Positions 20,204 to 63,733 of a stretch of DNA of 64,000 nucleotides are shown piece after piece (positions within the stretch are counted from its first letter, which is position 1; each line of letters starts with the position of its first letter). Position numbers and translations under genes: made by a program. This DNA is from Eledone cirrhosa. Lineage: Eukaryota. The DNA lies in the NCBI GenBank assembly GCA_964016885.1, contig OZ024743.1, positions 105,958,001-106,022,000 of the forward strand. The letters run 5' to 3'. A model generated the notes under the pieces. It was not told where the DNA came from, searched no databases, and was given only the letters and a program-made list of their open reading frames with translations.

Positions 20204-20240
20204 AATTTGATAATGCATAAAATGCCGAAACCGGTAATTG
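20204..20240 (+). ncRNA. Degenerate minimal hammerhead ribozyme motif
   Basis: aat-TTGATAA-t-gcat-aaa-atgc-c-GAAA-ccgg-TA-att. The stem III palindrome is ACCGGT. The core has two substitutions relative to CUGAUGA. Confidence 0.5.
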
Positions 20241-20617
20241 ACAATTATTAAATGAATAAATAAATAAATTCTATTGCTAATTAATAAATAATTTAACTAA
20301 TACCTTAACACTTCACACAAAGTCAAATATTTTATTTTAAACATTTTCTAGCCCAGAAAAAAAAGAGAAAAAAATAAAGGAAAAACAAATATTTTTCTTC
20401 CTAATAATCGTTTTTTTCTCCCTATTTCCACACACACACATATATATATATATATATTTATATATATATATATATATATATATATATACACCACACACAC
20501 ACATATATATATATATATATATATATATGCATATATATATATATACATATACATATATTTATATATATATATATAAATATAGAAGGGGAATTTAATTTGG
20601 AAATACGACAAATATAA

Positions 20618-20884
20618 ATGTTTATAATTGATTTAGAGCACTCAACAGTTTCTCTTTCAAACCTGATATGGAACTTAAAATGCAAGAATATAGACTATTC
20701 ATTAGCTTTGGAAAGAGTTTCAAAAGCACCCGCGAACCGAAACACAGCTTTATCTAGATTCGGCAAATTGTCTATTGAGGACATTTTTTATATACTTAAC
20801 TGTAAAAACTCAATTAATCTAAGAACGAATTTATTTAATTCTTGTAGACATTGCCAGAATTTCAACATTCAGAACTATATATAA
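20618..20884 (+). pseudogene. Penelope-like element endonuclease C-terminal remnant
   Basis: SLSNLIWNLKCKNIDYSL...FYILNCKNSINLRTNLFNSCRH resembles, from memory, the LS.YIW.LK...LLN.RSEL.SKCRH tail of PLE GIY-YIG proteins. A hammerhead-like motif lies 400 bp upstream. Confidence 0.55.
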
Positions 20885-21032
20885 CTTATAATTATATTTA
20901 TAATATTCCTATTAATCTCCATAACAATCTCATCTACTTGGTTTTAATATATTGATATATCTAAATCATAATATCTCTAACATTTGTTTTACTTCCACTT
21001 CTTAAAAGTGTTCATGCAATATATGCGTATAT

Positions 21033-21125
21033 AATTCTAATTTTTTAAAATTCTAATTTTTTAAAATTCTAATTTTTTAAAATTCTAATTTTTTAAAATT
21101 CTAATTTTTTTAAATTCGAATTTTT
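21033..21125. repeat. 16-bp minisatellite (aattctaattttttaa), about 5.5 copies
   Basis: Read directly. Confidence 0.9.
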
Positions 21126-59099: not shown

Positions 59100-62000
59100 G
59101 TTTACTTATCAAATAATTTAAACCAAATAAACTGCCAATAATCTAAATCCTAAACCATACACATTGCCAGCCAAAAATGGTTGATTCTATACAAATCAAA
59201 TAAACACTTTATAGATTCTGCCTAGTTGCTTTCGACTATCTAGAGTCGTAGTTGTATAGTATGTTGAGCCTCTGAAACTTGTTACTGTCGTACAATATAG
59301 GAGTAAACATCATCATACATAAATATGTACCTAAGTTAGTTTATGTTGCTTATGACACGGCGCCAAAATATATTCTCCTACTTTTGTCATAAAGTTGACA
59401 ACTTCACATTATCAAATGTTTTATTTACAAGCCATGGGATATTTGTGAATTTTCTCATATGCTAGAGATGTTTACAATATGGAACTCTTCGTTTCAATTT
59501 CATACATAAAACATACTTGAAAGGTTCTTATGCGTTCTATTATATATCTTGTCATTTAAAAATATGATGTATAGCAAAATAATATTCTTGTTCCTTCATA
59601 AATGGAGTTTACTGGGAATTCTGAGAAATAGATGCGATATTTATATTGTTCTAAATTCTAGAGAATATGTCATTCGCTACATATTCTAGGATGATCATAT
59701 CTCATGAGTAGTGTTGATACGAGTTATTATGTCTGTTTTCCCTTATTATTCAGCATTTTTAATATGTTTGAATCCAAACAAATAAGTGTATCCACAAATG
59801 CTGTAATGCTGCTTACAATACTGAACGTAACGTCTTATGTAATATATAAATATATACTATAAATCCTATAAAACCTTACAAGTACAAAAGTATAGAAGAT
59901 GATATCCCAAAAGTTTCAATCTATCTACAAAATATCTTTTACGTCAAAATTAAAAGAAACATATTTGTTATAGAACCTTCAAGCGGAATCATGTTTCAAT
60001 TCTATTACGACTCATTTTAGGCGAACAAACAGCGAATTATTCTGGTGGTATTTATTTTCTTAACATCGTGTTCCACATAAAAATATACTTGAACAGTATA
60101 AAACGGCCCTAGTCCTGTGAATCCTTTACTCAAATACTGCAAAATTTACTAAATAACTGCCCACTAATGAAGCCTCTGTAAATATTTCATTTGAGAAACA
60201 TAATATTAGATATTTTCTGCTAAATCATTACAGGGTGATTATAGTTAATGCAAGTATCCGCTATATTAGCACAGTGAATTGTTTGAAATACTATAATTGT
60301 GAGCATGAAATTGCATGCTAAGTAGTTCAATTTTAACGTAAAGAGATTCGAGAAATATAGAACTGATAGTTTCATTTTAAACTATATTTTCTTGGAAAAG
60401 TTGAATAAACCGAAATAAATGCGGAGTTGTTTTGGTAAAGTTCAAAGATCCGACTCACCACCCACTGCATTTCATACATTGATTAATACATTCTTATATC
60501 GAGTTATCTCCTTTGCTCCTCTTCACGAGAATTGTTATTAAAGCTGATGTATTTCCTGTTGATTACAAGAAAAAATTTCAGTTGATTAAAGGTTAATTAC
60601 GTTATAATGATTGACATATTCTAGGCCACGCGTAAATATGTCCATGATACTGAAGGGATCTCTAAAACGATTTCTAAATCCCGGAGTAATGGTTCAATTT
60701 CCTAATAGATCTTTCTGTCGAAGATATATCATAACAGAAAAATCTCAACGCACGCTTTCTGCCGCTCTGAGTATGGTTAGAGCGGTGACTTAAGCCACCT
60801 CAAAAATTGGTTTATTTTGTATTGAGAATTACGGATTTTGGCTATAAAAGGCCTAGTGACAGATTAATAAACACTAATGGCTTATCCGATTGTTTTGTAT
60901 TTATAAAATTTGGTAGGCAGCTAATTTGGAGATTAGTTAGAACGTCGGATAGATTGATGTGCAGTATTTGTTCCGAGTTTCTGCATTTTGGGATCAAATA
61001 GCCGAGGAAAACTTTACATTTCAATATGTTGATAAAAAGTACCAGTTCAGTACTATGAACTATACTTCTATAATCTTTTTCTAATTTCTTCTCATTTTCT
61101 CTTTCTCTCTTTCTCTGGAAGAAATCGGCTGTGTTCGGAACTAGAGAGCTAATGCTCACTGCCTAGATTAAAATGCCAAGGCAGGTAACATATCTCGACG
61201 AAGATCCTACGATACCACCAGGAGTTAGCAAATGAATAGTAAACACGGTTTCCAAAATAGAATCATATTTAAAATATCAACGATACACAAACGAATGTTG
61301 TAATCAGTGTAATAAATATTCCTTTGTCCCTTAAATATTTAATATTTAGTTGATAGTTTTCGTTTAGAGGAAACACTAAAAATATTGATTTTGATTTGAT
61401 TTATTAAGGAAGAATGATTAATAATTTGGAAATCAATGACTGTTGAAATAATCGCCACATGCGCTTGACAATGAACTATAAAACACTGCACTAAATGGCA
61501 TTAGTATGTACGGTACTTCATCTCACACGATTCTCTTAAAAATATTATATCGATTTTTTTTTCTTAAGCAATGTACATATATTTTAATCGATTTAAATTG
61601 TCCTCGATTCAAATGATCTATAAAACTTTAAAACAATTTTTGGTAAAGCCCCAAAACAACATCGAATTTCATGTGGTGATAGTAATTCAGCATAATTTCT
61701 GCTCTACATATTCAATGTAAAACCTATACTCGAGAATTAACCGAACTGCAAAAGCTTAATCCATTATCGAACCTGTTTCAACATTCCGAATTTCCATCAA
61801 ATCTGTATAATGTTATTGCATTTAAATCGACAGACACTTGAATGTTTTGTTTATAGATTTGTTACAATGGATTAATATAAGGGGTATATTATAAAGAGTG
61901 ATCTAAGTAGCTTAAGGTTGTGAAGAAAAGAAAATACGCTACCCATCAATTATAACTATGACACAAGAAGAGATCAGTTTCCACTCTAACATTCTTTACT

Positions 62001-62441
62001 AGCGGACATAATTTACCAATTTTAGGGAAAACGAATTGTAACGATGTCTCAAATATGCAACAGTTATTCACTGCAATTTCGATGTGGATGTATCATGTAT
62101 TATTTGCAAATCTGGGTGCCCCAAACACAGAAAATAATTGTTATAACTTTCAACCATTAAATGAAAAGGTAAACAAATTGGACACATTACTCTAACAGAC
62201 GGAACATGAGGGGCACAGGTGCTGATGCTCCCCTAATCGTTTTGGTGAAATCTCTTCAATGAAATGTATGTAATTTGTTATGCCATACGCACAATGTGGC
62301 AGATGTCTCTCGGTTGATACTGATGACTGGTTATTTGATTCTTAGACAAGCAAGTACAATTTATCCGATTATATATATATATATATATATATATATATAT
62401 ATATATATATATATATATATATATATATATATATATATATA

Positions 62442-63555
62442 TAAATATAAAGGTTAACATATACATAAAGTTATAGATATATATATATGTTGCAACTGGT
62501 CACTTTTAAGCTCTATGAAGAATTAATAAATTAAAAAATCAGAGCAATATATCATAAATCATGTCTTTAGAATCATCAGATAAAATATATACTATTTCTT
62601 CTTCTAATTAGCATAATTAACCATGTAAAATTAGATCAAGCTATAAGAAGAAAGGCTCTTATGGAGAAATCTCCGACAAATAACCGAACGTAGCCTCTTC
62701 GCGGTGGCGCCAATCGAGTATTTATCCAACATTTCGACAGCATGTAGAAACTGACTGAATATATCATCAACCATACACAATTAGGTGTAAAATTAAACTT
62801 AGAAGAAATGCGTACATACCGTAATCATATCTCTACCATGATTTCATCCGTATTTTTAGACATCTAAATTTTTAGACATCAAAAGACATGATTTATGATA
62901 TATTGCTGTGATTTTTTAATTTATTAATTCATCATAGAGCTTAAAAGTGACCAGTTGCAACATATATATATCTATAACGTTATGTATATGTTAACCTTTA
63001 TATTTAGTAATCTCCCGAAAGGTTGAGATTAAATTTGGCGATATTTGGCTGCGCTTTTTAGCAGCAAGCCTACCCGCCGTAAGCAACCAATCACATTCTT
63101 TCTGGCTTGACCACAGCCACATAGCGATTCTTAGCCATTTTTGAATCTATTTTTGGCGGAATCGGGTTGAAAAACTAGATGTCTGATTTTGAGTTTGTCT
63201 CCTGATGAATCCTAATTCAGGACATTCCTATTATTTGGATGTCTAAAAATACGGATGAAACCACGGTAGAGATATGATTACGGTATGTACGCATTTCTTC
63301 TAAGTTTAATTTTACACCTAATTGTGTATGGTTGATGATATATTCAGTCAGTTTCTACATGCTGTCGAAATGTTGGATAAATACTCGATTGGGGCCACCG
63401 CGAAGAGGCTACGTTCGGTTATTTGTCGGAGATTTCTCCATAAGAGCCTTTCTTCTTATAGCTTGATCTAATTTTATATGGTTAATTATGCTAATTAGAA
63501 GAAGAAATAGTATATATTTTATCTGATGATTCTAAATACATGATTTATGATATAT
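62442..63555. mobile_element. Family B composite inserted in (TA)n: nested inverted duplications around an intact hammerhead
   Basis: 62442-62568 is inverted at 62883-63006, and 62548-62868 is inverted at 63234-63555. (TA)n lies on both outer flanks. Confidence 0.88.
63196..63274 (+). ncRNA. Type I hammerhead ribozyme (family B) with extended stem II
   Basis: Stem I tgtctc/gagata, CTGATGA 63202-63208, stem II atcc/ggat with inner gacat(t)cc/ggatgtc, GAAA 63257-63260, stem III ccacgg, GUA triplet. Predicted cleavage is after 63268. Confidence 0.85.
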
Positions 63556-63678
63556 ATATATATATATATATATATATATATATATATATTATATATGTAT
63601 ATATATATATATATATATATATATATATAAAATAAAGTTAAATAAAAGTCAAATGATTAAAATTTAGCTTCGTTTATT

Positions 63679-63733
63679 ACTGCTATATATATTTCAGTGA
63701 CAGCCATCTTTGGCTGTGACCTCTTCAGGCAGT
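63679..63733 (-). ncRNA. Minimal type I hammerhead ribozyme (family C)
   Basis: Minus strand: actgc-CTGAAGA-ggtcacagcca-aaga-tggctgtcact-GAAA-tatata-TA-gcagt. Stem I is 5 bp, 10 of 11 stem II positions pair, and stem III is palindromic. It is followed by aataaa and (TA)n. Confidence 0.88.

Follow-up and report, generated by a model that had tools for sequence, protein, structure and literature searches.

We analyzed the hammerhead ribozyme repeats in a 64,000-nucleotide (nt) stretch of the Eledone cirrhosa genome (assembly GCA_964016885.1, contig OZ024743.1, positions 105,958,001 to 106,022,000 of the forward strand; hereafter, the window). One of the seven repeat families present, Family B, is a retrozyme without long terminal repeats (non-LTR retrozyme) by the features described in PMC7229834 and 10.64898/2026.07.22.740005, as judged from its genomic sequence alone, and it is probably mobilized in trans by the protein of a Hydra-clade Penelope-like element (PLE), which would insert it at (TA)n targets. 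The six other families are 5′-truncated 3′ ends of protein-coding PLEs, of the Hydra clade in Families A, C, and F and Neptune-type in Families D, E, and G. An initial annotation of the window had recognized about six ribozyme families linked to PLEs; both the ribozyme call and the PLE link hold, and self-comparison yields seven families. It had also taken most of the motifs for parts of non-autonomous elements, a view to be dropped if every module proved to be a truncated PLE end. This is so for six of the seven families, longer copies of which reach a GIY-YIG endonuclease open reading frame (ORF) 0.4 to 1.3 kb upstream, and is not so for Family B, to which the description as non-autonomous still applies.

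Family B units and copies

Family B comprises three subfamilies that are 70 to 75% alike, with units of 655 nt (B1), 645 nt (B2), and 678 nt (B3). Each of the 30 B1 loci can be mapped in full onto a concatemer of a single 655-nt unit, and B2 and B3 are built on the same plan; in total, 105 B loci (a few of them overlapping) were collected, including 25 further loci in the B2 set. The units have a GC content of 33 to 36%, are free of LTRs, and have longest stop-free stretches of 51 to 77 codons. The end of one unit reads through for at least 170 nt into the next in 60 of the 105 loci, and both orientations are present in 60 of the 105. PLE coding sequence joined upstream on the same strand was found at none of these loci, bar one weak flank (in L056), and a comparison with the six sampled PLE parents, made with TA runs masked, gave a best E value of 0.12. 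The insertions in the window are as follows.

62442-63549 (+): Family B1 insertion, consisting of an inverted tail (62442-62552), an inverted partial unit (62553-62869), the end of a preceding unit (62870-62897), and a full 652-nt unit (62898-63549), followed by (TA)n
62898-63006 (+): B1 tail region (unit positions 1-109) with a Hydra-type stem, one arm of which is mutated here and intact in the inverted tail
37773-38253 (−): Family B2 insertion, with a tail at 37773-37882 and a hammerhead divided by a 5′ inversion, which leaves its 3′ half on the − strand (38126) and its 5′ half on the + strand (38237)

An array of Family B on C1 extends over about 30 kb and an inferred 45 or so units (2 kb of the array is unread); it starts with an inverted part plus tail, ends at the fixed 3′ end and (TA)n, and displays higher-order unit patterns and a weakened stem II. 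Family B was seen three times in a 400-kb genome sample (40 evenly spaced 10-kb stretches), which extrapolates to roughly 22,000 fragments genome-wide (4,600 to 66,000). A half core near the 3′ end of B1 (63523 and 62579) was considered as a Hydra relic and rejected, since it is not kept in B2 or B3.

Insertion footprint and tail stem

Insertions of Family B carry the footprint of a PLE: a fixed 3′ end, an optional tail of about 110 nt, 5′ inversion, and (TA)n targets. The fixed 3′ end is followed by (TA)n or a tail at 27 of 28 located ends in B1, 24 of 25 in B2, and 25 of 25 in B3, against a background of 9%, and the same test gives 27 of 28 and 30 of 30 in the PLE Families A and C, respectively. 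More specifically, (TA)n follows directly at 22 (B1), 11 (B2), and 20 (B3) of these ends (A, 14 of 28; C, 15 of 30), and a tail or the next unit follows at 5, 13, and 5 (A, 13 of 28; C, 15 of 30). The PLE tail corresponds to the stretch between two internal start sites of the reverse transcriptase (RT) and has been termed unique to PLEs (PMC11167929). Since the unit is ORF-less and its footprint PLE specific, Family B was likely inserted by a PLE protein acting in trans.

The tails point to the clade of that protein. A stem of the form GCTCTG..CATAGAGC is present in 16/16 tails of Family X, a Hydra-clade family sampled outside the window, and in 35/50 B1 tails, and the form GCTCTG..CATTGAGC is present in 24/28 tails of Family Y (also Hydra clade), 34/43 B2 tails, and 14/19 B3 tails; the arms of B1 differ from those of B2 and B3 by one base. 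Tails of Families A, C, and F start with a related stem, ACTC..GAGT, and the GCTCTG form occurs in neither of the two tails from the Neptune-type Family E. When B tails are shuffled, the motif arises at most once per 200,000 shuffles per tail, and both of its hits in the 400-kb sample lie in X-like or Y tails.

The Family B hammerhead

63190-63274 (+): B1 type I hammerhead, with stem I of 6 bp, core at 63202, stem II of 4 bp plus an extension, palindromic stem III (one mismatch in this copy), and predicted cleavage after 63268
63190-63195 with 63214-63219 (+): predicted B1 pseudoknot, pairing the upstream strand with the region past stem II

Array loci aside, 85 dispersed copies were located through an anchor motif about 130 nt upstream of this hammerhead and scored for its conservation: the 5′ core is kept in 77, the 3′ half in 76, and both in 71. 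Pairs 1 through 4 of stem II are kept in 54, 76, 73, and 69 of 76 copies, with pair 2 being U-A in 58 and C-G in 18, and the exchanges encountered in this stem are A-U/G-C, U-A/C-G, and C-G/U-A. Swapping strands between B3 and B1 or B2 lowers stem II pairing to 0.45 to 0.69, from 0.76 to 0.91. Stem III is palindromic in 71 of 76 copies and takes three forms; both 8-nt and 10-nt forms exist, and a central AT/TA swap preserves the symmetry, such that this stem, as read from the copies, fits cleavage as a dimer. Stems II and III thus covary across B1 to B3; the initial annotation had set the absence of covariation among genomic copies, together with a lack of cleavage as monomer or dimer, as grounds for withdrawing the ribozyme call.

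A pseudoknot is likely as well: in 61 of the 76 copies, a GAG located upstream is paired to a CTC that comes immediately after stem II, and the inner pairs are kept in 61/61 and 58/61 of these. Pseudoknots between hammerhead stems I and II are known to accelerate cleavage (PMC3088659), and both low activity and dimer dependence have been reported for PLE hammerheads (PMC4209133; reviewed in PMC6765202).

Proposed mobilization of Family B

In the mechanism that we propose, arrays would yield multimeric B transcripts, and the hammerhead would cut these once per unit, as a dimer formed through the palindromic stem III and with the help of the pseudoknot, to give unit-length linear or circular RNA. 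The Hydra-clade protein would bind the tail stem and nick a (TA)n target, and reverse transcription would start at one of two internal sites flanking the tail. An early stop or a strand switch would produce truncated and inverted copies, read-through of a multimer or circle would produce head-to-tail copies, and later unequal exchange would expand some copies into long arrays. More tentatively, and with somewhat less than even confidence, we suggest that Family B is a long-lived parasite of Hydra-clade PLEs, similar to a short interspersed nuclear element (SINE), whose kinship to its hosts is limited to a mimicked tail stem (an RNA element recognized by the RT) and whose replication would proceed via a circular RNA that its pseudoknotted hammerhead cuts.

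Several observations weigh against mobilization by a Hydra-clade protein, or against parts of the mechanism. The link to the Hydra clade is a 14-nt motif that was found after the fact; outside the tail stem, Family B has no alignable likeness to the six sampled parents, and the B2 and B3 units chosen for the shuffle test had lost the motif. A longer CTC..GAG stem occurs in Family E, which raises the possibility that PLEs in general carry the stem base, and the Neptune-type side of the comparison comprises only two E tails, no tail-bearing copy having been found for Family D (11 ends) or Family G. With respect to the ribozyme, stem I swaps do not discriminate, unguided RNAalifold on a MAFFT alignment of 21 copies did not recover the hammerhead, and stem II base pair 1 is mismatched in 22/76 copies and in 14/14 array units read. 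The pseudoknot anchors are present in only 61/76 copies, and a CG/CG to CA/TG change in them could reflect CpG decay. Folded as circles and compared with 25 doublet shuffles, the three units yield z scores of −2.6, −1.4, and −1.4, indicating only mild self-pairing, and in one in vitro study a PLE inserted without needing its hammerhead (PMC11167929). Finally, each genomic copy search scored its best 40 candidates, which leaves room for a rare coding parent of Family B.

Such a parent would make Family B the pseudo-LTR of an unsampled protein-coding PLE that moves in cis, with tandems formed locally from the terminal repeat. Xenopus retrozymes match PLE pseudo-LTRs, and a route of this kind is proposed in 10.64898/2026.07.22.740005, yet we consider it unlikely here: apart from the L056 flank, the 105 B loci lack same-strand upstream PLE coding, whereas upstream ORFs turned up within 12 to 30 loci for each of Families A, C, E, F, and G, and three subfamilies as divergent as B1 to B3 retain the same ORF-less unit and junction. 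Alternatively, Family B could be non-autonomous but driven by a Neptune-type (or Naiad) protein. The initial annotation had suggested Neptune-type PLEs as the mobilizing elements, the Neptune-type Families D and E likewise end at (TA)n or (CA)n tracts, and Octopus Naiads target (TA)n (supplement of PMC8557442). However, the B tail of about 110 nt resembles those of Families A, C, F, and X (about 70 to 105 nt) rather than that of Family E (about 32 nt after a TA run), its stem arms match those of Families X and Y and not E, and the PLE families with intact hammerheads, A and C, are of the Hydra clade; as such, a Neptune-type driver is probably wrong, and we rate this alternative as quite improbable. 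The long C1 array, with its higher-order unit patterns and weakened stem II, would suit a satellite that spreads as DNA (by unequal exchange and reinsertion of DNA circles) and in which the hammerhead is a relic. Neither the fixed 3′ end, optional tail, 5′ inversions, and (TA)n flanks nor the compensatory changes in the hammerhead are predicted by a satellite origin, to which we attach very little probability.

Hammerhead motifs in the window and genome

All CUGANGA cores in the window were enumerated, after which a strict type I descriptor (stem I of ≥4 bp, stem II of ≥3 bp, and a near-palindromic stem III) was applied. It is matched at four positions (37541(−), 37638(+), 63202(+), and 63728(−)), each with the core CUGANGA...GAAA...UH within stems I, II, and III, whereas 200 block-wise dinucleotide shuffles yielded 0.025 matches on average and never more than 1. 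These are the sites at which the initial annotation had described intact type I topology (37485-37549(−), 37630-37694(+), 63196-63274(+), and 63679-63733(−)), and its intact core with a weak stem I at 49665 is likewise borne out, stem I being merely 2 bp. A scan with Rfam returned 107 matches at an E value of ≤10 in the window, none to a hammerhead family, which weakens the database label and leaves the structural call unaffected. We regard the motifs as genuine matches in sequence and structure, with cleavage itself predicted. They differ from plant LTR retrozymes in that every motif is type I rather than type III and there is no LTR pair.

The 400-kb sample contains 19 strict motifs, or 3.0 per 64 kb, and the probability of four or more in the window is 0.36 given this density; the window is ordinary for this genome. 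Extrapolated to 3.0 Gb, the sample corresponds to about 142,000 strict motifs (86,000 to 222,000), or about 47 per Mb, which is a high number, and 267 motif copies from the collected loci form 24 clusters.

By self-comparison, the 13 hammerhead sites of the window resolve into 10 insertions of the seven families: A (22084, 30713, 37485, and 37630), B (38126/38237, 62828, and 63196), C (63679), D (49665), E (20204), F (26158), and G (43567). Three pairs of sites (37485 with 37630, 62828 with 63196, and 38126 with 38237) each belong to a single insertion whose 5′ part is inverted; the last of these, listed among the decayed or split versions, is a hammerhead split by a 5′ inversion within one B2 insertion. 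Among the other sites listed as decayed or split, 43567 is broken and 26158 and 22084 are decayed, as stated, whereas 20204 is not, its U3-A8 core being present in 11/12 copies of Family E. The placement of the sites at (TA)n tracts stands for 9 of the 10 insertions, which terminate at (TA)n or (CA)n(TA)n, and fails for Family G. Most motifs had also been said to have no adjacent ORF, which is incorrect for 20204, 22084, 43567, 49665, and 63679, each of which is colinear with remnants of PLE coding sequence that lie within the window or shortly past its edge. Different families stand back to back on one (TA)n tract in two places (A with B2 at 37739-37812, and B1 with C at 63550-63629), as expected if every insertion leaves a target for the next. 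In single-strand folding, Family C alone clearly surpasses shuffles (z = −2.6), with the other six at −0.2 to −1.3.

Hydra-clade families

20590-22189 (+): Family A copy with an endonuclease remnant (20621-20851), a 3′ untranslated region (UTR), and a decayed hammerhead at 22084; colinear with locus L031
30669-30800 (+): Family A 3′ end; hammerhead at 30713 with an internal deletion
37359-37738 (inverted pair): Family A 3′ end with intact hammerheads at 37485-37549(−) and 37630-37694(+); tail on the − arm only
63629-64000 (−): Family C 3′ end (young Hydra-clade PLE) with an intact hammerhead at 63679-63733; endonuclease ORF about 0.9 to 1.6 kb past the window edge
25882-26368 (+): Family F 3′ end with an inverted arm; hammerhead at 26158 decayed, its GAAA changed

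The Hydra clade is defined by the motifs RWK, DKT, YRDD, CxCX5C, CxxC, and CxH, and its members target (TA)n (PMC8557442, the supplement of which includes Hydra-1_Obim). Our assignments follow this motif set. A C-terminal GIY-YIG domain with the CxCX5C linker, CxxC, and CxH and without CCHH is found in Families A and C, and the linker was read in Family F. In the RT region, RWK and DKT are present in Families C and X and RWR and DKT in Family Y, Families A and F having been read without the N-terminal part; one Family C locus (L110) has all six motifs. Families A, C, and F also display the insertion features of the Hydra type, namely, a hammerhead, (TA)n target, truncation, inversion, and tail.

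The 30 genomic copies of Family A are truncated to varying extents at the 5′ end; inversions occur among them, one end bears a tail, and (TA)n flanks them. In L031, the endonuclease ORF lies 1.27 kb upstream. Copies of Family C are near-identical. In Family F, the endonuclease lies upstream in 2/15 loci, and the hammerhead is intact in 10/14 other copies. Family X is a young family with an uninterrupted 710-amino-acid (aa) ORF (L303, 2615-4756(−), at C1:156.28 Mb) and many identical ends on C1, and it was likely active recently; Family Y is older. For one of the PLE proteins, Argonauta hians supplied the best named relatives. Copies of Family C have a common frameshift at a G-run, as do copies of Family X at a C-run (loci L101, L103, L110, and L112), reflecting either assembly error or a mutable tract. 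A further Hydra endonuclease fragment lies at 52016-52168.

Neptune-type families and other ends

19670-20431 (+): Family E 3′ end (Neptune-type PLE); hammerhead at 20203-20240 with a U3-A8 core, last endonuclease codons at 19670-19720
46994-49785 (+): Family D, a Neptune-type PLE with frameshifts; remnants of RT and GIY-YIG extend to 49263, with a minimal hammerhead at 49665
42628-43625 (+): Family G, an old Neptune-type PLE remnant related to Family D; broken hammerhead at 43567
38252-38407 (inverted pair): Family H 3′ end, truncated inside stem II of a U3-A8 hammerhead; absent from the initial annotation

A CX2-5CxxC linker and CCHH were read in translations of Families D and E, Family G being decayed; we use the label “Neptune-type” because this linker also occurs in Nematis. 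The endonuclease precedes the hammerhead end of Family D in the window, a Family E locus (L246) holds a full pLTR-ORF-pLTR element, and Family G has an ORF upstream in L146 and several copies with GAUA replacing GAAA. Pfam matched none of the 10 PLE pieces from 42.6 to 49.3 kb. A decayed RT and endonuclease of the Neptune type, with Family E as a relative, lie at 44541-45699. The U3-A8 core variant has been reported from PLEs of Schistosoma (PMC4209133).

Family H, which supplies the most frequent end in the 400-kb sample (19 hits), has a second window site at 50432-50513 and further copies in L084, L175, L022, and L100. Its U3-A8 hammerhead has a long self-contained stem III, its tail stem is ACTC..GAGT, and no parent ORF was found in the loci examined. 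Almost every copy is truncated within the loop of stem II, and a reading of the clustered 5′ ends as cleavage sites was rejected on account of this position. Family I (32861-33365) is a further inverted pair flanked by (TA)n; its 3′ end is fixed, and the 300 nt seen contain no hammerhead.

Other repeats in the window include an intact 1,216-aa ORF of a non-LTR retrotransposon with RVT_1 (12833-16483, flanked by (AAT)n; a broken relative is at 3355-6579), a two-ORF non-LTR element with RVT_1 and zf-RVT (6922-11970(−)), and a DDE_3 transposase remnant (31904-32362). A 192-nt SINE-like repeat, presumably akin to octopus SINEs, occurs three times in tandem at 57470-58078 and in about 15 dispersed copies besides.

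Relation to known systems

Hammerheads on truncated PLE ends are known biology, and the dependence of animal retrozymes on PLEs is already in print. Which enzyme moves these retrozymes is an open question: PLEs were named “a strong candidate” (PMC7229834), and the 2026 preprint (10.64898/2026.07.22.740005), whose sample comprises 31 vertebrates, 3 insects, and 1 coral, leaves the mechanism to be worked out. Our literature search, covering few subscription papers and neither Repbase nor preprint supplements, returned no work on cephalopod retrozymes, PLE tails in retrozymes, or a common Hydra tail stem. Family B makes the question testable: one genome contains both an ORF-less element with a PLE footprint and a young Hydra PLE whose 710-aa ORF is intact and whose tail stem matches. 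Together they offer a ready protein-RNA pair for in vitro work, with which trans-mobilization could be tested and the element recognized by the RT of this unstudied PLE clade could be defined. If the more tentative reading of Family B as a parasite of Hydra-clade PLEs is true, no animal retrozyme before it would have had a named mobilizing partner and recognition signal.

The PLE ends conform to published systems. The minimal PLE hammerheads of Cervera and de la Pena (2014, PMC4209133) share several features with those seen here: stem III is palindromic, one genome hosts many families, most motifs are single and truncated, close pairs stand on opposite strands, and the U3-A8 core occurs (here, in Families E and H), so this part of our observations was already described; the density of about 47 strict motifs per Mb (about 140,000 genome-wide) can be set only roughly against the 4,000 to 9,000 per genome in the vertebrates that they quote, as the descriptors differ. 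Families A, C, F, X, and Y resemble the Hydra-clade PLEs of Craig et al. (2021, PMC8557442) in their C-terminal GIY-YIG, RWK/DKT, CxCX5C, CxxC, and CxH motifs, as well as in a hammerhead near the 3′ end, (TA)n targets, truncation, inversion, and tail. Their 3′ UTRs of 0.6 to 1.6 kb and longer tails contrast with the 30- to 40-bp tails and generally <3-kb elements reported there; several of the families are abundant, with some near-identical copies, and the common tail stem does not appear in the passages cited. The pseudoknot predicted here has precedents in the hammerheads of Perreault et al. (2011, PMC3088659) but belongs to a type I motif of an animal repeat whose stem III is palindromic.

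Family B has parallels in two groups. Non-autonomous Chlamys elements, such as MRC1 (PMC8557442), are likewise ORF-less PLE dependants with head-to-tail copies, but their 3′ ends are similar to those of their parents, and hammerheads are missing from most Chlamys elements, whereas Family B has only the short tail stem in common. Animal non-LTR retrozymes (Cervera and de la Pena 2020, PMC7229834; Li et al. 2026, 10.64898/2026.07.22.740005) are, like Family B, ORF-less, AT-rich, and head-to-tail, with one type I hammerhead per unit, and range from monomers to long arrays beside autonomous PLEs. Units of Family B are longer than the 170 to 400 nt of invertebrate retrozymes and within the range of 51 to 972 given by Li et al. 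For known retrozymes, mobilization by PLEs has been argued from co-occurrence and pseudo-LTR homology, an insertion footprint and common tail stem being absent from the parts cited; Family B, in contrast, is without pseudo-LTR homology to the six sampled parents and is only mildly self-paired, targets (TA)n, and displays a PLE tail, fixed end, and 5′ inversion.

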